Translations under genes and position numbers: made by a program
Assembly (NCBI RefSeq): GCF_988242995.1
Contig: NZ_OZ547043.1
Strand: one strand, 5' to 3'
Length of the DNA: 64,000 nucleotides
Shown: positions 2,906-17,849 of the stretch, piece by piece
How positions within the stretch are numbered: the first letter of the stretch is position 1
Layout: every line of letters starts with the position of its first letter
The notes under the pieces: model-generated
The model's input: the letters and a program-made list of their open reading frames with translations, nothing else
Database searches by the model: none
What the model was told of the DNA's origin: nothing

Positions 2906-4069
2906 TTACGCCTTCTTTATATCCTCCATAATTCCAGAGTGGGACATATTTGGGACATTATCACCAAAAATGTCGTCTATTTTCCTCGCATGCTCTGTCA
3001 AATGATTAGGCGCAAGGTGAGCATACCTACGAACCATTTCTATGGACTCCCATCCGCCCATTTCCTGAAGCACTGATAATGGGACGCCTGACTGAATCAG
3101 CCAGCTTGCCCAGGTGTGTCTGAGGTCATGGAAACGGAAATCTTCAATTCCTGCACGACGACAAGCTGATAGCCATGATGTCTTGCTGTCGATGCGCATC
3201 TTCCTGACCGCAGGCGTTGATGTTCCATCTGCTCGCTTAGCCGCCTTGGTATGTACAAACACCCATTTGTGATGCTTGCCTATTTGATCACGCAACACTT
3301 TACAGGCGGTATCGTTCAGCGCCACACCAATGGCGCGGTTTGATTTGCTCTCTTCTGGATTCACCCAGGCAACTCGTCGCTGCATGTCGATTTGTTGCCA
3401 TTCCAGATTTATGATGTTCGACTTTCTCAGACCAGTTGCCAGCGCAAACTTGACGACAGATTTCAGTGGTTCGGGGCACTCATCAATAAGGCGTTTTGCT
3501 TCCTCCTTTTCCAGCCATCTGACTCGCTTGTTTCTGACCGCTGGTATCTTGATGACAGGCGCTTTTTCCAGCCACTTCCAGTCGCGTTCTGCAGCACGGA
3601 GAATGGCCTTTATCATGGCAAGATGCTTTGCCTTTGTCTGAGTTGATACTGGCTTTGGTTCATAAACAGGCAGTTCTTTACCTTTCCTGATGGCGGCCTG
3701 AACTTTCTGTTTCCATATTTCTTTCGTCTTTCTGTTATGCATTCTGCTTACAGCAGAGTAAATCTTTGCCTCCGAGATATCTTTAAGCCTTATACCCTCA
3801 AAATGTTCAAGCCAGAACTCAATCCGGCTTTTATCTGAATCGAGAGATTTTTTATCAGCTTTTTCCTCAAGCCATCTTAGGCAGGCCTCTTCAAAAGTGA
3901 CATCAGGTAAATCCCCTAGCTTTTCTACTCGCCAGAGTTCTGCTTTTCGCTTGTCGTGCAACTCCTGAGCTTGCCGCTTGTCCTTTGTGCCAAGAGATTC
4001 CTTAATTCGTTTCCCGCCCGGGAGCGAATACGAGGCGTACCATATTTCATTTCTGCGGAAGAGTGACAT
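2906..4069 (-). CDS. intD: Tyrosine integrase
   Basis: 387-aa ORF with H-x-x-R and C-terminal Tyr region ([10 protein letters not shown]...VRRYAHL); directly beside tRNA attL as for DLP12 IntD. Confidence 0.9.
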
Positions 4070-5545: not shown

Positions 5546-6226
5546 TCATCGCCATTGCTCCCCAAATACAAAACCAATTTCAGCCAGTGCCTCGTCCATT
5601 TTTTCGATGAACTCCGGCACCATCTCGTCAAAACTCGCCATGTACTTTTCATTCCGCTCAATCACGACATAATGCAGGCCTTCACGCTTCATGCGCGGGT
5701 CATAGTTGGCAAAGTACCAGGCATCTTTTCGCGTCACCCACATGCTGTACTGCACCTGGGCCATGTAAGCCGATTTTATTGCCTCGAAACCACCGAGCCG
5801 GAATTTCATGAAATCCCGGGAGGTAAACGGGCATTTCAGTTCAAGGCCGTTGCCGTCACTGCATAAACCATCGGGAGAGCAGGCGGTGCGCATACTTTCG
5901 TCGCGATAGATGATCGGGGATTCAGTAATATTCACGCCGGAAGTGAATTCAAACAGGGTTCTGGCGTCGTTCTCGTACTGTTTTCCCCAGGCCAGCGCCT
6001 TAGCATTAACTTCCGGAGCCACACCGGTGCAAACCTCAGCCAGCAGGGTGTGGAAGTAGGACATTTTCATGTCAGGCCACTTCTTTCCTGAGCGGGGCTT
6101 TGCTATCACGTTGTGAACTTCTGAAGCGGTGATGACGCCGAGCCGTAATTTGTGCCATGCATCATCCCCCTGTTCGACAGCTCTCACGTCGATCCCGGTA
6201 CGCTGCAGGATAATGTCCGGTATCAT
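5546..6226 (-). CDS. exo: Lambda-type exonuclease (Red alpha)
   Basis: 226-aa ORF near-identical to lambda Exo ([40 protein letters not shown]...). Confidence 0.95.
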
Positions 6227-7008
6227 GCTGCCACCTTCTGCTCAGTGGCTTTCTGTTTCAGGAATCCAAGAGCTTTCACTGCTTCGGCCTGTGTCAGTTC
6301 TGACGATGCGCGAATGTCGCGGCGAAATATCTGGGAACAGAGCGGCAATAAGTCGTCATCCCATGTTTTATCCAGGGCGATCAGCAGAGTGTTAATCTCC
6401 TGCATGGTTTCATCGTTAACCGGAGTGATGTCGCGTTCTGGCTGACGTTCTGCAGTGTATGCAGTATTTTCGACAATGCGCTCGGCTTCATCCTTGTCAT
6501 AGATACCAGCAAATCCGAAGGCCAGACGGGCACACTGAATCATGGCTTTATGCCGTAACATCCGTTTGGGATGCGACTGCCACGGCCCCGTGATTTCTCT
6601 GCCTTCGCGGGTTTTGAATGGTTCGCGGCGGCATTCATCCATCCATTCGGTAACGCAGATCGGATGATTACGGTCCTTGCGGTAAATCCGGCATGTACAG
6701 GATTCATTGTCCTGCTCAAAGTCCATGCCATCAAACTGCTGGTTTTCATTGATGATGCGGGACCAGCCATCAACGCCCACCACCGGAACAATGCCGTTCT
6801 GCTTATCAGGGAAGGCGTAAATTTCTTTCGTCCACGGATTAAGGCCGTACTGGTTGGCGACGATCAGCAATGCGATGAACTGCGCATCGCTGGCATCACC
6901 TTTAAATGCCGTCTGGCGAAGAGTGGTGATCAGTTCCTGTGGGTCGACAGAATCCATGCCGACACGTTCAGCCAGCTTCCCTGCCAGCGTTGCGAGTGCT
7001 GTACTCAT
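6223..7008 (-). CDS. bet: Recombination protein Bet (Red beta)
   Basis: 261-aa ORF matching lambda Bet; stop overlaps the exo start. Confidence 0.95.
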
Positions 7009-7013
7009 CCGTT

Positions 7014-7310
7014 TTATACCTCTGAATCAATATCAACCTGGTGGTGAGCAATGGTTTCAACCATGTACCGGATGTGTTCTGCCATGCGCTCCTGAAACTC
7101 AACATCGTCATCAAACGCACGGGTAATGGCTTTTTTGCTGGCCCCGTGGCGTTGCAAATGATCGATGCATAGCGATTCAAACAGGTGCTGGGGCAGGCCT
7201 TTTTCCATGTCGTCTGCCAGTTCTGCCTCTTTCTCTTCACGGGCGATCTGCTGGTAGTAACGCGCCCAGCTCTGAGCCTCAAGACGATCCTGAATGTAAT
7301 AAGCGTTCAT
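7014..7310 (-). CDS. gam: Host RecBCD inhibitor Gam (short form)
   Basis: 98-aa [42 protein letters not shown]... matching lambda Gam. Confidence 0.9.
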
Positions 7311-7385
7311 GGCTGAACTCCTGAAAATGGCTGTGAAAATATCGCCCGCGAAATGCCAGGCTGATTAGGAAAACAGGAAAGGGGA

Positions 7386-7796
7386 TTAGCGATTCAGGCC
7401 GTTAGCGCGTCCGTCGAGAAAAACTTCCACGAGCAAATCACGGGTATAAGTGCGCTCGATGCCGCGATGCAGATAAAGCCGTCCGCGTAAATTACCTGAT
7501 GCAGTCCAGGTACCATCTTTGTGTTTGACCAGCATTCCTGGCATGATCGCACCTCGATTAACGGTCTGCGTTCCGTAATGTTGATGAACCATAAAAACTC
7601 CTGCCCGTAAGCTGGGCTGCTGAACATATAGAGACTTCTGCGCGTATTCAGGCGGTGGATGGCCGCCGGTTGTCATAACTAAGTCGCCTCGTTGAAGCGA
7701 CTGAGGTATGAAGTGTTGAGTTGATTTCAGCTGGTCACACCGACGTTCACGCGTCCGTTTCACCCCTCGCACTCCCCGAAGCCTGCTGAAATTCAA
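7386..7796 (-). CDS. Hypothetical protein at the kil/N position; Arg-rich N-terminus
   Basis: 136-aa ORF downstream of gam; N-terminus [15 protein letters not shown]; true start uncertain. Confidence 0.3.
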
Positions 7797-8035
7797 ACTG
7801 CGGATCTAAGCGGTCATCGCAACGGTGAATCAGGTAGTTGCCGTATCGTTGTGTTGTTGCGATGAACTTATTTAAAACTATAGTTGTTTTATCGTCAACA
7901 ACAAAAGTTGTTTTATTGGTTGTTTTAGATATAACTGGTTGTATTTAGGATGGATTTATTTTGTGACTTGAATCGCATAGCGATAACTGAAGCGAGGTTA
8001 TGGTGGTTTTTTTAACGGTGTGTGTGATGAGGGGA

Positions 8036-8068
8036 GGGCAAAAGAAAACCCGGCACGGTGACCGGGAT
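8036..8068 (-). terminator. Candidate rho-independent terminator on the minus strand, downstream of cI
   Basis: Reverse strand gives hairpin CCCGGTCACCGTGCCGGG followed by TTTTCTTTT. Confidence 0.4.
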
Positions 8069-8187
8069 TCTTACGCCGTTAGGTAAAGATATTATTGCGG
8101 TGGCTTAATATTACTACCTAGAGCAAAGATAGGAATTAGTTCTTTACTGAATGAGCACAATGCCCAGTTGATAATTTTTAATTGGTA

Positions 8188-8877
8188 CTACCCATGCTTC
8201 CTATATGTCTGCGGCATGCTCCCAATAACCTTACCGAAGATGAACACCCGGTTCATCTCGTCTTTCTCGATCGGGTCCCACGGTGAGTAGCTTTTGTTAT
8301 CAGAGATGACCAGCAGCTTATCCTTCATCATTTGCAGGCGCTTTACATGGGCTGTGTCGTCGTACAGAAACGCATAGATACCATCACCGTCGAAAGATTT
8401 AACTGTGATATCAACGAACAGCAGATCACCTGGTTCGATCGTTCCTGACATGCTGTCACCACGCACGTTAATGATGCGGATATTTTCCGCCTTCCTACCA
8501 TCGAACATGTGACGAGCATCGTCAAACGAGTACTCAACCGAGCGTAGAACTTCTACAAACTCACGGTTGATGACTCCCGGCCCAGCACTGACTTCTATAT
8601 CAAGAACGTCAATCTTGAAGTATTTGGAATGGCTGACAGTTGATTGTATTGGTTGCACTGTACTGTCTGACATATTTCCAACGCCAGAAGATAACCATTC
8701 TGCGCGCACACCCAAAGCGTTCGCGATCTCCACGATTTTAGTTGTTTGATTAGCTTTCCCTGTTTCGATTTTCTGAATAGCAGCCTGGCTAACCCCGACC
8801 AAATCCCCAAGCGCCTTTTGTGTAAGGCCTCGCGCTAATCTGGCTTCTTTAAGTCTTTCTGAGAGTGTTGTTTTCAT
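8188..8877 (-). CDS. cI: CI-type repressor (XRE HTH plus LexA-like S24 peptidase domain)
   Basis: 229 aa from MKTTLSERLKEARLARGLTQKALGDLVGVSQAAIQKIE with C-terminal autocleavage-type domain; divergent from cro. Confidence 0.85.
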   Translation of the reverse strand: MKTTLSERLKEARLARGLTQKALGDLVGVSQAAIQKIETGKANQTTKIVEIANALGVRAEWLSSGVGNMSDSTVQPIQSTVSHSKYFKIDVLDIEVSAGPGVINREFVEVLRSVEYSFDDARHMFDGRKAENIRIINVRGDSMSGTIEPGDLLFVDITVKSFDGDGIYAFLYDDTAHVKRLQMMKDKLLVISDNKSYSPWDPIEKDEMNRVFIFGKVIGSMPQTYRKHG

Positions 8878-8981
8878 AGTCCAAATGTACAACCAAGGTT
8901 TTATTCCATCAAACGAAAATGGTTGTTGACTAAAAACAACCATAGTTTTAATCTTGATTCAAATTAACCACGGAGGTTGTT
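8878..8981. promoter_or_regulatory. cI-cro intergenic operator/promoter region (OR-like)
   Basis: Inverted repeat GGTTGTT-N7-AACAACC (8911-8931); similar TTGTT/AACAA motifs recur left of cI at about 7860-7915. Confidence 0.5.
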
Positions 8982-9212
8982 ATGAACCCAGCTATCAAAA
9001 CAGCGATCAATATCGTTGGTTCACAAAAGAAACTGGGCGCTGCTTGCGAAGTTTCACAGCAGGCCGTCTATAAGTGGCTTCACAACAAAGCAAAGGTATC
9101 CCCTGAACATGTCGGCAGCATTGTTACGGCTACTGGTGGAGTAGTGAAGGCATACCAGATTCGCCCGGATCTTCCGAAGTTGTTTCCACACACCGAAAAG
9201 AACGCAGCTTAA
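8982..9212 (+). CDS. cro: Cro/YdaS-like HTH regulator
   Basis: 76-aa HTH ORF with GGAGG RBS, divergent from cI. Confidence 0.7.
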   Translation: MNPAIKTAINIVGSQKKLGAACEVSQQAVYKWLHNKAKVSPEHVGSIVTATGGVVKAYQIRPDLPKLFPHTEKNAA

Positions 9213-9281
9213 ATTTCCATTTCACGCTCTTTAACAATAAGCAATCAACTTAACAGTCAATTCAAACTAAAGGAGTCAATT

Positions 9282-9821
9282 ATGCAACCACTTACATACC
9301 AACAGACTAGCGGATTTAGCCCGACTGCGGTGATAAATCGTTCTCAAACAAAACAGGTGCCAGGCCACGAAAAAATCCGTGATGCCGTCCGCGCCTGGTC
9401 GGCTGTAGATAATCAGGATGTCGTTGCCACACTCATTGTGAATGAGTATCGGGAGCAGGGCGGCGGCACCATCGATTTCCCTGATGATGTCAGCCGTGCA
9501 CGCCAGAAGCTGTTCCGCTTCCTCGATAACAAATTCGATTCTGAAAAATACCGAAATAACGTGCGTGAACTGACCCCGGCAATTCTGGCGGTACTACCGC
9601 TGGAATATCGCGGTTACCTGGTTGAGCAGGATAGCTTCATGGCTAGGTTGGCTGAAATGGAAAAGGAACTCAGTGAGGCAAAACAGGCTGTCATTCTCAA
9701 CGCACCACGCCACCAGAAACTGAAGGAAATTAGTGAAGGTATTGTGTCGATGTTTCGTGTGGACCCAGATCTGGCTGGTCCATTGATGGCGATGGTTACT
9801 ACCATGCTGGGGGCGATATGA
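9282..9821 (+). CDS. YdaT-like protein at the cII position
   Basis: 179-aa ORF following the Cro-like gene; motif TPAILAVLPLEYRGYL recalls the YdaT family as I remember it. Confidence 0.5.
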   Translation: MQPLTYQQTSGFSPTAVINRSQTKQVPGHEKIRDAVRAWSAVDNQDVVATLIVNEYREQGGGTIDFPDDVSRARQKLFRFLDNKFDSEKYRNNVRELTPAILAVLPLEYRGYLVEQDSFMARLAEMEKELSEAKQAVILNAPRHQKLKEISEGIVSMFRVDPDLAGPLMAMVTTMLGAI

Positions 9822-10837
9822 CAGGTTCAGAAATGGCGAAAGCCGGTCTGCTGGAACAGAACCGACTTTCAGGTGCAAATCGTAACACACTCATTGCGGG
9901 AGGAATTATGGCAAACACTGCTGAGATATTCAATTTTCCAGTGCCGGATGCGGCACAAAAGGAGCCGCGCGTGGCAGATCTCGATGATGGTTATACGCGC
10001 ATTGCAAATGAGTTGCTGGAAGCTGTGATGCTGGCCGGATTAACACAGCACCAGCTTCTGGTCTTTCTGGCTGTCATGCGCAAAACATATGGCTTTAATA
10101 AAAAACTGGATTGGGTTAGCAACGAGCAACTTTCCGAATTAACCGGGATATTGCCGCACAAGTGTTCTGCTGCAAAAAGTGTTCTGGTAAAGCGTGGGAT
10201 TTTTATTCAGAGCGGGCGGAATACCGGCATTAATAATGTGGTCAGTGAATGGTCAACATTACCCGAATCAGGTAAGAGAAATAAAGTTTACCTGAAAGAG
10301 GTAAATTTACCTGAATCAGGTAAAAAAAGTTTACCCAAATCAGGTAAAGGCGTTTACCCGAATCAGGTAAACACAAAAGACAAACTAACAAAAGACAATA
10401 TAAAACCTTTTTCGTCCGAGAATTCTGGCGAATCCTCTGACCAACCAGAAAACGATCTTCCTGTGGTGAAACCGGATGCTGCAATTCAGAGCGGCAGCAA
10501 GTGGGGGACAGCAGAAGACCTGACCGCCGCAGAGTGGATGTTTGACATGGTGAAGACCATCGCGCCATCAGCCAGAAAACCGAATTTTGCAGGGTGGGCT
10601 AACGATATCCGCCTGATGCGTGAACGTGACGGACGTAACCACCGCGACATGTGCGTGCTGTTCCGCTGGGCATGCCAGGACAACTTCTGGTCCGGTAACG
10701 TGCTAAGTCCGGCCAAACTCCGCGACAAGTGGACCCAGCTCGAAATCAACCGAAACAAGCAACAGGCTGGCGTGACAGCCGGCAAACCAAAACTCGACCT
10801 GACGAACACTGACTGGATTTACGGGGTGGAGCTATGA
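9818..10837 (+). CDS. O: Replication initiator O (alternative start ATG 9908)
   Basis: Lambda O-like protein whose coding sequence contains the ori iterons; stop overlaps the P start. Confidence 0.8.
   Translation: MTGSEMAKAGLLEQNRLSGANRNTLIAGGIMANTAEIFNFPVPDAAQKEPRVADLDDGYTRIANELLEAVMLAGLTQHQLLVFLAVMRKTYGFNKKLDWVSNEQLSELTGILPHKCSAAKSVLVKRGIFIQSGRNTGINNVVSEWSTLPESGKRNKVYLKEVNLPESGKKSLPKSGKGVYPNQVNTKDKLTKDNIKPFSSENSGESSDQPENDLPVVKPDAAIQSGSKWGTAEDLTAAEWMFDMVKTIAPSARKPNFAGWANDIRLMRERDGRNHRDMCVLFRWACQDNFWSGNVLSPAKLRDKWTQLEINRNKQQAGVTAGKPKLDLTNTDWIYGVEL
10256..10370. repeat. Phage origin iterons inside O (5 copies of TTTACC(C/T)GAATCAGGTAA-like repeat)
   Basis: Directly repeated about 18-bp units at about 20-bp spacing within the O reading frame, as in lambda ori. 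Confidence 0.7.
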
Positions 10838-11774: not shown

Positions 11775-14700
11775 ATGACCACTGTGAATAAAAAGTTAAA
11801 AAAAACTGCATCTGGCGCGATTACATGGTCAGTAATTGTTACCCAGATATTATCTCCAGTTTCTCTTTCTTTGATTCCGGCAAACAGTTTTGCATCGTCT
11901 GATAATAAAGATGTTACGCAAATTTATGCTAGCGATGAGCGTGCAAATAAAGTGGCCTCATTTGCAGTAAGTGCAGGTCAGAGTCTGGCGAATAATAATG
12001 CAAGTAGTTTTGCTGTAAATACTTTATCAACTCAGGCGACAAAAGAGGTCGTCGATTGGTTGCAACAATATGGCAATGCGCGCATCAAGCTTAATGTCGA
12101 TGATTCTTTTTCCTTGAAGGATTCATCATTCGACTTTTTATATCCATGGCTGGATACTCAGGATTATGTGCTATTCAGTCAGACATCACTACATCGTACT
12201 GATGACCGTAATCAGACCAATATTGGTTTGGGGATTCGTCATTTCACTCCTGATAATGCAATGTTGGGTGCGAATGTTTTCTACGATTATGATTTAAGTC
12301 GCAGCCACTCTCGCGCAGGTTTTGGGGTTGAGTACTGGAGAGATTATTTCAGGTTTGGTGTAAATACCTATTTTGGTTTATCTGACTGGAAGGACAGTCG
12401 GGATATTGATGATTATCTGGAAAGACCCGCAAATGGCTGGGATTTTTCTGCTGAAGGATGGCTACCTGCTTATCCGCAATTAGGGGCATCTATTCAGTTT
12501 GAAAAATATTATGGTAAAAATGTCGGATTATTTGGAAGCGATAATCTGCAGGAAAACCCTTACGCAGTTACTGGGGGAATTTCTTATACACCAGTTCCTC
12601 TGATTAAGTTTTCTGCACAGCATAAGCAAGGACAGAGCAACGTTCACGATACAACCTTTGGTGTTGAGTTTAATTACCGCCCAGGCGTTTCCCTTGCTGA
12701 ACAGCTTAGCAGTGACAATGTTGCAGTTATGCGAGAAGTCCAGAACCGGCGTTATGATTTTGTTGAACGAAATAACAACATTGTTCTGGAGTACAAGAAG
12801 AAGCATGCACTGAAAATCAGCTTACCAGAGTCTGTTCAGGGGGATGGCGAATCAATCATCCCTGTAACACTGACAATCAACAATGCCAGTGGTGGTATCA
12901 AGTCTGTACAGTGGAATGATAGTGTATTCACTGCGGCTGGCGGTAAGATCAGTGGAAATGGCACATCATGGCAGGTCACTTTACCGGCTTATAAAAGCGA
13001 AGGTGTAAATTCGTGGAATGTTGGAGCCACGGTCCAGGATAATAGAGGCAACGTTTCCAACTATGCGGTGATGAATATTAGCGTTATTAATAGTGGTGTC
13101 TCGACAGCGGATTCTTCTTTTATGTTGGATGGAGATTCATCTCCGACGATCTCTGCTGATGGTCAATCCACTCATCCAATAGTATTAAGCCTGAAAGACA
13201 GTAACGGTAAGGCATTAACCGGACTGGCTGATGACATTGAAATGTCAGTGGAATTTACTGCGGATAGCAATAGTGCTCGACAGCGTGAAACGGTAACTGC
13301 CCCGTCATTAGGCGCGGTAGAGGAAATCTCTGCTGGTGTATATCGCTCTGTTCTGACTGCTGGTTCGCAGGCTGGCACAGTACGTGTAACAGCAAAAGTT
13401 CAGGGAAAAACCTTTACTTTGAATATTAAGCAGGCAGCCGTTATTGATAGTGATGTCTCGACAGCGGATTCTTCTTTTACGTTGGATGGTGATTCGTCTC
13501 CGACGATCTCTGCTGATGGTCAATCCACTCATCCAATAGTATTAAGCCTGAAAGACAGTAACGGTAAGGCATTAACCGGACTGGCTGATGACATTGAAAT
13601 GTCAGTGGAATTTACTGCGGATAGCAATAATGCTCGACAGCGTGAAACGGTAACTGCCCCGTCATTAGGCGCGGTAGAGGAAATCTCTGCTGGTGTATAT
13701 CGCTCTGTTCTGACTGCTGGTTCGCAGGCTGGTACGGTACGTGTAACTGCAAAAGTAATGGATAAAACATTTACTCTCAGTATTAAGCAAACAGCAGCAA
13801 CAGAACCTGATTCTGAGGTCAGTGCTGTTTTAACCGCTGCACCAGCAGAACAGGTAGTTGGTTACAATATCAATCTACAACTGGCAGTGAAGGATTCACA
13901 AGGAAATGCAATCACTGGTGATAACACTCTGAGCTTTTATGCTCTTAACCAGGCAGAAGGAGTCGAGTTTGGGGCAGTAACGGAAAAAGACGGTGTCTAT
14001 AGCGCGACAGTAACTTCAAAACGAGCTGGTAAGATTCGGATCGGTGTTAAATCGGGTAGTCACAATTTCTCAGGTATTGAGAAAGAAATCTCCTTTATTG
14101 AAGATCGAACACAGTTCGCATTCTCTCGTATTGAAGCCAGTAAAAATAATGCATTGGCTGACGGCAAACAAAAGAATACGGTGACTGTAAGCCTTGCAGA
14201 TCGTTTCGGCAATGTTGTGCCCGGTTATGCTGTTACGCTGTCCTTACCTGCGGGGGTAACTCAAGTTGGTGGTGAACATGCTGTGTCAACTGACGAAAAC
14301 GGTAATGCTGTTTTTGCGTTAATAAGCTCCACTCCGGGTTCTTACGTGATTAAAGCTCATGCTGGTTCTCAGATGTCTACTGAGTTAACAGTAACCTTTG
14401 CATCAAATATGATCGGAGCTTCACTGTCACTGACGCCTGGAAACAGTAGCTTAATTTCCAATATTCCTGCTAATGGTAAGGATGCTGCGGTATTGAATGT
14501 GCAACTGACAAATACGAATGCGTCGGTCAATGGACAGAAGATTCAGCTCATCACCTCATCTGAAGGATTGTCTGTACCGACAAATATCGTGACTGATTCA
14601 ACAGGGCATGTTTCCGTACCACTTACAACGGTGAGAGCTGGTGAGTATACGGTGGCTGCACGAGTGACTGACGGTTCCCATAGTGTGGAGTCTGGCAGCG

Positions 14701-15683
14701 TTAAGTTAACTTTTGTACCAGATGCTGCTTCCGCAGAACTTACTATGAGTACATCAAAACAGCAGATTGTGGCCGATGGTAGTGAAAGTGCAACAGTGGA
14801 CATTCAGTTGGTTGATGCCAATAACAATGCGTTTACAGGCGATGTGGATTTAACGGTTACACCATCGACGGGAGCATCATTGACCAGTAGTAAACTGCAG
14901 TTGGATGCTCATGGACAGGCAACAACGCAGTTCACAGCATCGAAATCAGGCCAGTACACAATTCAGGCTGAGTATGTTCTAGATGGGAAACGTATAACCG
15001 CAAGCAAAAATATTGATGCCGTGACGGATGTGAAGGAGGCTGTGTTGGAGATCACATCATCTGCATCTTCGGCTGTAGTGAGCGATACCAACAATCTGAT
15101 ATTTACGTTACTGTTGAAAAGTACGTCAGGCGAAGTATTAAGTGGTCGAGTATTGAATATCAAGGCATCTGGGCCGTCCAAATATGGTGCGTTGGTGGTT
15201 GATAAAACCACTGTAACGACTGATGAGTATGGTCTGGCTACGGTAAGCGTACATGGTCGAACGGCTGGTTCGTATAAATTAACGGCGACCTTAGATGAAC
15301 TTGGCAGTGATGTTAGTGAGGTGAAGTCATTCTCTCTGTATGCTGATGAGGCAAATGGAGTATTGACACTGCATAAAGATGGAGGCTATGACACAGATGA
15401 TGGTACTCCAGTGGGGGTTTATGCCCGATTTGTTGACCATTTCGGCAATCCGTTATCTGGTACGGTTGAGTTTTCTGCTGGTAGTGAAGATAGTCCAAAC
15501 TCTCAACTGGTTAAAATGGAGCCTGCTACAGTAACGTTACACTGGACAGGTAATGCAGCCTCGGAGTTCAGCACCTATGAAAGCGGTTATCACTGGATTA
15601 AGGCCAAAATAACGAACAGCAAAAATACATATGAGAAAACAATAAGGACTTATGTTGTAAAGCTCCCTGAAAAGGATAGTTAA
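11775..15683 (+). CDS. Inverse-autotransporter (intimin/invasin-family) adhesin with repeated Ig-like domains
   Basis: 1302-aa ORF: long signal peptide, beta-barrel-like N-terminal region, then many Big-type repeats; AT-rich upstream region. Confidence 0.75.
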   Translation: MTTVNKKLKKTASGAITWSVIVTQILSPVSLSLIPANSFASSDNKDVTQIYASDERANKVASFAVSAGQSLANNNASSFAVNTLSTQATKEVVDWLQQYGNARIKLNVDDSFSLKDSSFDFLYPWLDTQDYVLFSQTSLHRTDDRNQTNIGLGIRHFTPDNAMLGANVFYDYDLSRSHSRAGFGVEYWRDYFRFGVNTYFGLSDWKDSRDIDDYLERPANGWDFSAEGWLPAYPQLGASIQFEKYYGKNVGLFGSDNLQENPYAVTGGISYTPVPLIKFSAQHKQGQSNVHDTTFGVEFNYRPGVSLAEQLSSDNVAVMREVQNRRYDFVERNNNIVLEYKKKHALKISLPESVQGDGESIIPVTLTINNASGGIKSVQWNDSVFTAAGGKISGNGTSWQVTLPAYKSEGVNSWNVGATVQDNRGNVSNYAVMNISVINSGVSTADSSFMLDGDSSPTISADGQSTHPIVLSLKDSNGKALTGLADDIEMSVEFTADSNSARQRETVTAPSLGAVEEISAGVYRSVLTAGSQAGTVRVTAKVQGKTFTLNIKQAAVIDSDVSTADSSFTLDGDSSPTISADGQSTHPIVLSLKDSNGKALTGLADDIEMSVEFTADSNNARQRETVTAPSLGAVEEISAGVYRSVLTAGSQAGTVRVTAKVMDKTFTLSIKQTAATEPDSEVSAVLTAAPAEQVVGYNINLQLAVKDSQGNAITGDNTLSFYALNQAEGVEFGAVTEKDGVYSATVTSKRAGKIRIGVKSGSHNFSGIEKEISFIEDRTQFAFSRIEASKNNALADGKQKNTVTVSLADRFGNVVPGYAVTLSLPAGVTQVGGEHAVSTDENGNAVFALISSTPGSYVIKAHAGSQMSTELTVTFASNMIGASLSLTPGNSSLISNIPANGKDAAVLNVQLTNTNASVNGQKIQLITSSEGLSVPTNIVTDSTGHVSVPLTTVRAGEYTVAARVTDGSHSVESGSVKLTFVPDAASAELTMSTSKQQIVADGSESATVDIQLVDANNNAFTGDVDLTVTPSTGASLTSSKLQLDAHGQATTQFTASKSGQYTIQAEYVLDGKRITASKNIDAVTDVKEAVLEITSSASSAVVSDTNNLIFTLLLKSTSGEVLSGRVLNIKASGPSKYGALVVDKTTVTTDEYGLATVSVHGRTAGSYKLTATLDELGSDVSEVKSFSLYADEANGVLTLHKDGGYDTDDGTPVGVYARFVDHFGNPLSGTVEFSAGSEDSPNSQLVKMEPATVTLHWTGNAASEFSTYESGYHWIKAKITNSKNTYEKTIRTYVVKLPEKDS
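13083..13796. repeat. Near-perfect tandem duplication (2 x 357 bp) inside the adhesin gene
   Basis: 13083-13439 and 13440-13796 differ at only a few positions; each encodes one 119-aa Ig-like repeat. Confidence 0.9.
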
Positions 15684-15694
15684 CAAAACAGAAT

Positions 15695-15722
15695 AGGGAG
15701 GGCTAAGCCCTCCCACTTTTTA
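15695..15722 (+). terminator. Rho-independent terminator after the adhesin gene
   Basis: GGGAGGGCT-AA-GCCCTCCC hairpin followed by a T-run. Confidence 0.6.
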
Positions 15723-17386: not shown

Positions 17387-17471
17387 AGTCAGAGATAACA
17401 ATCAACTAATGCTGTTTTGTTGATTTTTGCTTGTAATTGGCGTTCTGGTCTGAGTTTTGTGGAGTAAGTTG

Positions 17472-17849
17472 ATGCGTGATATTCAGATGGTTCTTGAGCG
17501 TTGGGGAGCGTGGGCGGCTAATAATCATGAAGATGTGACCTGGTCGTCCATTGCCGCCGGTTTTAAGGGATTAATTCCTTCAAAAGTAAAATCTCGCCCA
17601 CAATGTTGTGACGATGACGCGATGATCATTTGCGGGTGCATGGCCCGTCTGAAAAAGAACAACAGCGATTTGCATGATTTATTGGTGGACTATTATGTCG
17701 GCGGCATGACTTTTATGGCGCTTGCACGTAAGCATGGGCGATCTGATTGTTGGGTTGGCAGGATGCTCCAGAAAGCTGAGGGCGTAGTGGAGGGTATGCT
17801 GATGGTATTGGATCTCCGATTGGAGATGGATGCTGATTGTTCGAAATAA
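17472..17849 (+). CDS. quuD: Late-gene antiterminator Q
   Basis: ATG at 17472 with [33 protein letters not shown]... matches DLP12 QuuD. Confidence 0.85.

Follow-up and report, generated by a model that had tools for sequence, protein, structure and literature searches.

Left operators, a leftward promoter and a long kil leader next to the cI gene of a lambda-like Escherichia coli prophage: a sequence-based account

Results

Genetic setting

The 64-kb stretch of DNA analysed here, referred to as the window, carries a lambda-like prophage. The following genes frame the region of interest.

2906-4069, minus strand: int
5546-6226, minus strand: exo
6223-7008, minus strand: bet
7014-7310, minus strand: gam
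7386-7796, minus strand: long open reading frame (kil plus leader)
8188-8877, minus strand: cI repressor gene, 229 aa (Pfam HTH_3 and Peptidase_S24)
8982-9212, plus strand: cro, YdaS-type
9282-9821, plus strand: cII, YdaT-type
rightward of cII, plus strand: O and P
17457-17849, plus strand, further right than P: Q

Escherichia phages PhiR34_1 and Turner share 99.3-99.4% identity with the region, which also has relatives in the Bievrevirus phages 4A7 and Perceval. The 390-bp gap at 7797-8187 very probably forms the left part of the immunity region in a lambda-like (Bievrevirus-type) prophage, and it represents the usual left control region found in a prophage type that is very common in E. coli. 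To its right the cI product has an HTH domain and an S24/LexA-like domain, and its gene starts at ATG 8877 rather than at 8943, the start of a 251-aa open reading frame; the cI gene of PhiR47_2, of 690 bp, has the identical sequence.

An earlier note on this DNA had described 7797-8187 as non-coding. Between the cI stop codon (8188) and the leftward open reading frame (7796) there is no open reading frame of at least 60 aa, the short ones being a frame of 36 aa at 7838-7948 (plus strand) and two more that straddle 8168-8290, and in the RefSeq/PGAP annotation the S24 repressor is the sole entry around 7797-8187, with no feature in the gap itself. The description thus holds in that no intact gene is present, but the stretch is not purely intergenic, because 8071-8146 is a pseudogene remnant, as described below. 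An Rfam scan of 6500-10500 with E up to 10 gave no match in the gap region except a terminator hairpin, which reached 17 bits against a ctRNA model with a cutoff of 50 bits. Searches of the literature on GevA/GevT and on Bievrevirus returned nothing on this region, nor was this immunity type described in any publication found.

Two further features of the prophage were observed in passing. A 1302-aa open reading frame (11775-15683, plus strand) lies between P and ninB and contains tandem internal repeats; by eye it is invasin/intimin-like, and in the PHROG scan it matched only families of unknown function. Inside the O gene, repeat units of TTTACCTGATT and GGGTAAAC are clustered at 10265-10376, where they give rise to spurious miRNA/sRNA Rfam matches; the cluster looks like an iteron-type replication origin.

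Operators and promoter in the gap

The elements considered in this section are as follows.

7863-7957: immunity-specific OL/pL block, swapped between immunity types
7874-7887: OL1, ACAAC-TATA-GTTTT, an exact pattern match that overlaps the pL spacer and -10
7898-7911: OL2, ACAAC-TTTT-GTTGT, a perfect palindrome (exact match on both strands) that overlaps the pL -35
7919-7942: weak OL3 candidates, ACAAC half-sites at 7919-7923 and 7938-7942, read from the sequence
7869-7898, minus strand: pL, with -35 TTGACG at 7898-7893 and -10 TTAAAT/TAAATA at 7875-7869, placed by homology to pR
8879-8981: OR/pRM/pR, with operators at 8889-8902, ~8912-8925 (weak) and 8936-8949 and the pR -35 TTGACT at 8926-8931
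7958-7993: invariant block of 36 nt, conserved across both immunity types

The earlier note had pointed out GTTGTT/AACAAC repeats in the gap, resembling those between cI and cro, and had taken them as candidate OL operators. It could be argued that such repeats occur by chance in an A+T-rich spacer and that pL is located elsewhere, since a generic sigma-70 promoter scan called no minus-strand promoter here but did call a plus-strand site at 7857-7884. Four lines of evidence speak against this argument. Firstly, the 14-nt core ACAAC-N4-GTTKT has five exact matches in 64 kb, whereas shuffled sequences have 0.27 on average and never more than 2, and the matches are at 7874-7887, 7898-7911 (both strands), 8889-8902 and 8936-8949, i.e., all in OL or OR and none outside the gap or the cI-cro spacer. 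Secondly, the OL block mirrors pR: OL1 and the OR1 region 8933-8951 form an inverted repeat (I2) with 95% identity over 19 nt, the minus strand at 7911-7869 (TTGTTGTTGACGATAAAACAACTATAGTTTTAAATA) is nearly the same as the plus-strand sequence that surrounds pR (TGGTTGTTGACTAAAAACAACCATAGTTTTAATCT), and the core of pL can be aligned closely to that of pR, TTGACT..TAATCT. The centre-to-centre distance of OL1 and OL2 is 24 bp, and the OR sites are spaced by 23-24 bp. Thirdly, the block co-varies perfectly with the type of repressor, as described in the next paragraph. Fourthly, the same pL/OL core stands ahead of the early-left genes in Klebsiella and Providencia phages. With these data the chance origin of the repeats is hardly credible.

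The comparison with related phages, which the earlier note had suggested, shows two immunity types, an ACAAC-type and a CAATAGC-type (operators CAATAGC/GCTATTG). In an alignment of nine phages, wholesale replacement between the types is limited to 7863-7957, with both flanks conserved. Among 80 IMG/VR relatives there are 36 loci in which both the OL type and the cI type are readable, and in all 36 the OL type is that of the N-terminal DNA-binding domain of cI. The two repressor types (the cI of the window versus those of loci L005 and L019) are 81% identical overall and diverge mainly at the N-terminus, with divergent HTH regions and highly similar C-terminal parts. This suggests that the DNA-binding domain may be exchanged as a module together with OL and OR. 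Thus, the reading of the repeats in 7863-7957 as OL operators that overlap a leftward pL is supported, and it is to these sites that the repressor would bind.

Two strong OL operators are evident. The half-sites within 7919-7942 can be regarded as weak OL3 candidates that do not form a full palindrome, and a third OL operator is doubtful. The pL transcript would start near A7863. In the other immunity type the promoter is TTGATA-17-TATTAT, and its +1 falls on the same aligned base, which is where the conservation across types begins. The generic scan missed pL because its -10 matches the consensus poorly. The plus-strand site that the scan did call, TTGCGA-16-TATAGT, is its sole sigma-70-like call in 7300-9300; it is antisense to pL and lies within OL1 and the leader hairpin, and, not being conserved in the other type, it is probably fortuitous.

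Two other candidate operators were rejected. The GTTGTT copy at 7849-7860 is conserved in phages having a different repressor and is part of the transcribed leader rather than an operator, a point that the earlier note had overlooked. For the YdaT operator TTGATT-N6-AATCAA, the best site (8954-8971) has 2 mismatches and the count is barely above that of shuffled sequences, giving no convincing site.

About 95-130 bp upstream of the pL start is the block 7958-7993, which contains a 13-bp palindrome, ATCGCATAGCGAT (7972-7984), present once in the window. Among 41 distinct sequences of both immunity types the block is invariant except for T/G/A at 7971 and one G variant in one sequence, and its flanks vary. 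No match to the IHF, YdaT or LexA consensus is evident in it by eye. The block may be a binding site for a factor common to both immunity types.

The accessory slot and the terminator of the cI transcript

Between cI and the OL/pL block three elements can be distinguished.

8143-8187, minus strand: cI 3' untranslated tail, directly 3' of cI also in relatives that carry accessory genes
8071-8146, minus strand: gevA pseudogene remnant, from translation alignment and BLAST junctions
8039-8066, minus strand: intrinsic terminator of the cI (immunity) transcript, a conserved hairpin with a U-run

The interval from cI to the terminator corresponds to the position of rex in lambda and is a highly variable accessory or defence slot. 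In E. coli relatives it contains GevT/GevA, HipA/HipD, a SIR2 protein, a lipoprotein, transmembrane proteins and others, and in the Klebsiella phage ST101-KPC2phi6.1 it holds RexA and RexB. Among the 80 IMG/VR relatives at least 15 size classes of the slot occur, the shortest being 122 nt, to which that of the window belongs, and the longest exceeding 2.3 kb. The hypervariability is documented at 8067-8187 and at loci L002, L004, L005, L007-L011 and L019.

The absence of rex stated in the earlier note is confirmed, in that 8067-8187 holds no open reading frame for rexA or rexB and is composed of the gevA remnant and the cI tail. The earlier note had overlooked that this part of the gap is a deletion scar. 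The remnant, of 76 nt, derives from an ASCH-domain gene, "gevA", of whose 3' end it retains the last ~25 codons with an internal stop: the translation, which reads IPIFALGSNIKPPQ, a stop, YLYLTA and a second stop, aligns with the GevA C-terminus, IPISALGSNIKPPQSYLYLPA followed by a stop. In BLAST comparisons 8143-8190 matches positions 5226-5273 of L002 and 5241-5288 of L005, adjoining the cI stop. Since the cI-tail match and the gevA-end match overlap by 4 nt (8143-8146), the sequence at 8071-8146 indicates the scar of a ~1.38-kb deletion, by which gevT and most of gevA were lost. The exact junction is shared by 757 of 5426 complete E. coli genomes. The common "empty" slot is a deletion derivative.

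The minus-strand terminator that had been noticed before is also verified. A terminator scan gives a stem at 8066-8049 (CCCGG..CCGGG) of 6 bp, 5 of them G-C, followed by TTTTCTTTTG. In 41 distinct relatives the stem is invariant and the loop variable, and in the Klebsiella phage the same hairpin is directly 3' of rexB. Because it is conserved in all relatives and comes after rexB in that phage, the hairpin 8066-8039 is the predicted counterpart of lambda tIMM.

The kil gene and its leader

On the left side of pL the following elements are found.

7386-7592, minus strand: kil, 68 aa plus stop, of the KilR-type FtsZ/cell-division inhibitor family, first gene of the pL operon
7593-7863, minus strand: untranslated pL leader of ~270 nt upstream of kil, conserved and non-coding
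7814-7865, minus strand: 5'-terminal leader hairpin of 10 bp, with arms TCATCGCAAC and GTTGCGATGA that form a perfect inverted repeat (I13)
7673-7711, minus strand: leader hairpin, from a predicted fold, that buries a GAGG Shine-Dalgarno sequence and AUG 7676
7576-7682, minus strand: nearly invariant segment of 107 nt, from the conservation among 74 sequences

The earlier note had suggested, while marking the idea as unsupported, that the open reading frame 7386-7796, which has an Arg-rich N-terminal part, encodes an N-like antiterminator; the arginine-rich motif would then be at the N-terminus of the product and would act on a nutL located within ~65 nt of the 5' end of the pL transcript. It is true that this is the first open reading frame after pL, that an exact boxA is present at the nutR position (see below) and that a 10-residue motif in the Arg-rich part presumably has a loose resemblance to the arginine-rich motif of lambda N. 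However, the frame divides into two parts with quite different properties. Residues 60-135 match PHROG 294 (Kil) with E = 1.9e-35, and residues 69-130 match the NCBIfam model PRK11354 'FtsZ inhibitor' with E = 2.4e-14, at 53 bits, where the curated cutoff is 92 bits. The match covers the whole ~70-aa protein and the gene is positioned upstream of gam, as Kil/KilR genes are, so that 7386-7592 is assigned to the Kil family, with inhibition of cell division as its putative function. The family homology begins at ATG 7592, which is preceded by the Shine-Dalgarno sequence AGGAG and is the start of the 68-aa form in PGAP: in seven other genera, including Silvania, Kluyvera, Citrobacter, Leclercia, Entomohabitans and Pseudocitrobacter, the homologues start with MVHQHYG or MI(S/H)H(Q)HYG, equivalent to ATG 7592, and a tblastn search with a 96-aa form covered residues 24-96 alone in the other genera.

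The Arg-rich part behaves otherwise. Within kil, 18 of the 24 variable sites are at third codon positions, while upstream of ATG 7592 the variable sites are spread 9:5:7 over the codon positions, with no bias. Codon 32 of the long frame is changed from CAG to TAG in 11 of 74 relatives, and the frame is shifted in the phages Turner (at ~7603) and PhiR30_1 (at ~7597). The Arg-rich 68 residues have no homologues among 5.8 billion proteins except miscalled open reading frames of the same locus, and with no homologues beyond this locus a decayed N gene was likewise rejected. Moreover, the pL leader has neither a boxA within 2 mismatches nor a boxB-like stem of at least 5 bp with a purine-rich pentaloop. 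The suggestion of an N-like protein is therefore not sustained and the probability that it holds is negligible; the Arg-rich "ORF" is to be read as leader sequence fused in frame to kil.

With regard to annotation, it is noted that the records of PhiR34_1 and Turner (PV340559, PP925837) contain an alternative-frame open reading frame (77 or 94 aa) across kil, at 7394-7675 on the minus strand, and that several PhiR records call 'Kil' at 96-139 aa, the conserved gene being the 68-aa form.

The leader, the first 66 nt of which fall inside 7797-8187, occurs in 2230 of 5426 (41%) complete E. coli genomes with an identity of 95-99% and is never annotated there; no Rfam family matches it. It is common to both immunity types. 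Among the 74 sequences, 2 of the 84 columns of 7593-7676 are variable, as compared with 24 variable columns in the 204 of kil and 27 in the 153 of the leader core, so that the conservation of 7593-7676 exceeds what coding alone would be expected to give. The nearly invariant segment 7576-7682 spans AUG 7676, a GGCGG/CCGCC hairpin, the kil Shine-Dalgarno sequence AGGAG and the kil start. AUG 7676 opens a short frame with a polyproline run, located within a segment more conserved than the kil coding sequence. In the hairpin at 7673-7711 all five variable paired positions (7710, 7699, 7697, 7684 and 7683) still pair via G-U. In the 5'-terminal hairpin 7865-7856 pairs with 7823-7814; its predicted fold has z = -1.26, which is weak alone, and one relative breaks a pair. 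The fold of the whole leader is no better than that of shuffled sequences (z = -0.28). The leaders that precede kil in other genera are shorter (only ~90 nt), with similarity limited to the proximal part (ACGCGCAGAAG..GTTC.GC.GCC); hence ~190 nt of the leader are specific to the E. coli lineage. A 13-nt sequence, AATCAACTYAACA, that occurs in the leader (7726-7714) and in the cro-cII spacer (9243-9255) was considered and rejected, as it is at about chance level and varies among relatives.

Read-through in the early operons

A conventional N gene, which the earlier note had not found, is indeed absent from the annotations of PhiR34_1, Turner and Perceval, made independently, and the nin region of the window holds no N candidate. 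The search for nut-like boxA/boxB elements that the earlier note had proposed gave none between pL and the long open reading frame. The part of the leftward early operon that extends from exo to xis/int contains two good terminator-like hairpins (5485-5463 and 4890-4872, both on the minus strand), and in lambda comparable terminator sites are overridden by N. On the right, a strong bidirectional hairpin (15696-15714) lies after the 1302-aa open reading frame and before ninB/Q, and rightward early transcription would have to pass it to reach Q. Because there are terminator-like hairpins in both early operons, a read-through mechanism may be needed. Two candidates can be considered.

The first is that the host Nus factors alone, recruited by a boxA after cro, bring about the read-through by an rrn-like anti-Rho action, with no phage protein taking part, the left operon reaching exo with no antitermination. 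The element concerned is as follows.

9226-9237, plus strand: rrn-type boxA GCTCTTTAACAA, at the nutR position in the spacer that separates cro from the cII-like gene

For comparison, the boxA of rrn reads UGCUCUUUAACAA. The exact GCTCTTTAACAA at 9226-9237 is the single such match in 64 kb. Consistent with the proposal on the left side, no intrinsic terminator is called from pL to the end of exo except a weak hairpin at 7361-7344. A hairpin scan shows merely a 4-bp A/U stem after the boxA, with no boxB-like hairpin. All ACAAC-type relatives and a Providencia phage share the boxA, which is missing in the CAATAGC-type relatives, despite their having the same leader, cII, O and P, and the pL leader contains no boxA. 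In addition, rrn-type complexes act mainly on Rho-dependent terminators, not on intrinsic ones. On balance this mechanism is unlikely.

The second is that the pL leader is a cis-acting RNA that makes the polymerase resistant to termination or blocks Rho, in place of N/nut and put; it would have a function like that of HK022 put without being related to it in sequence. In favour of this, the cross-type conservation starts exactly at the presumed +1, as it does for putL (PMC9378689), the phage has no N yet carries terminator-like hairpins within both early operons, and the leader is strongly conserved in its 41% of complete E. coli genomes; put-like mechanisms have been proposed by specialists for other N-less lambdoid phages (PMC12315714). 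By contrast, a put covariance model (R1), built from 7 sequences (HK022 putL and putR, UPF_BP1, phiEt88, CobraSix, S9-5 and HK639), recovers the two HK022 elements with 95.8 bits (putL) and 46.6 bits (putR), but the window, Perceval and 4A7 all give at most 9.9 bits, with the best hit in the window (E = 2.8) not in the leader region. Searches with putL/putR by blastn-short found chance 9-15-mers only. Furthermore, no second copy of the leader follows pR or is present anywhere in the window, the E. coli-specific part is absent upstream of kil in other genera, and the fold energy is unexceptional. This cis-acting mechanism is therefore improbable, and as a processive antitermination element the leader is possible but unlikely. 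Control of the stability or the translation of the toxic kil message is most likely what the leader provides.

Discussion

Based on the above analysis, we propose the following working of the region. In the lysogen, cI would be transcribed leftward, the transcript ending at the intrinsic terminator 8066-8039. Dimers of cI would occupy OL1 (7874-7887), OL2 (7898-7911) and the weaker half-sites, and pL would thereby be shut off. By analogy with lambda, cI at OL probably cooperates with OR, which is ~1.0 kb away, by DNA looping. Upon induction, pL would fire at ~7863 to give the ~270-nt leader and then kil (7592-7386), gam, bet and exo, and the leader hairpins together with the 107-nt segment around the kil ribosome-binding site would control the stability or translation of the kil message.

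The region is an ordinary one, of a known kind. Its analysis corrects the annotation of a prophage module that occurs in ~40% of complete E. coli genomes, as OL, pL, the immunity terminator and the true starts of kil (68 aa) and cI are now placed, and the calls of 136-aa, 94-aa and 77-aa open reading frames in deposited phage records are artefacts. Moreover, an abundant group of phages with neither N/nut nor put has terminator-like hairpins in both early operons, for which the leader and the boxA after cro are the candidates. If the reading of the leader as an antiterminating RNA were true, it would be a new cis-acting RNA device in very common N-less lambdoid prophages.

Comparison with known systems

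The arrangement is that of lambda in its main lines. The order of cI, accessory slot, terminator, operators overlapping a leftward promoter and early-left genes with kil-gam-bet-exo is the same, the OL operators have the palindrome of OR, and an S24-type repressor acts on pL, as it would in this prophage. The differences are that the operator here is ACAAC-N4-GTTGT, that two strong OL sites are evident, that the slot occupied by rexA-rexB in lambda has been emptied by deletion, and that pL leads into a ~270-nt leader and kil rather than into nutL and N, and the prophage also lacks cIII, ral and sieB.

In CP-933P, which carries the paaR2-paaA2-parE2 cassette, PL has the -35 and -10 of PR, and three OL sites lie beyond the toxin-antitoxin cassette (PMC8630535). 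Both prophages have a YdaS-type Cro and a YdaT-type CII, a PL that shares the -35/-10 of PR, OL sites like those of OR, and the placement of PL beyond the cassette position downstream of the repressor. They differ in the sequences of repressor and operators, those in CP-933P being GTTTAGTAA-type repeats (PMC8630535), in the cassette, which is present there and deleted here, and in that CP-933P was studied by experiment and the present region is known from its sequence.

With HK022 putL the leader has in common that it is a conserved RNA element at or next to the +1 of pL in a lambdoid phage having no N. By contrast, the covariance-model search finds no match to putL in sequence or structure here, no copy follows pR, and the lengths are ~70 nt for putL and ~270 nt for the leader.

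Finally, the gene after the leader belongs to the same family as KilR of Rac and Kil of lambda and phi80 and, like them, is immediately upstream of gam; the difference is that in this prophage the genes of the pL operon begin with it, after a long conserved leader.
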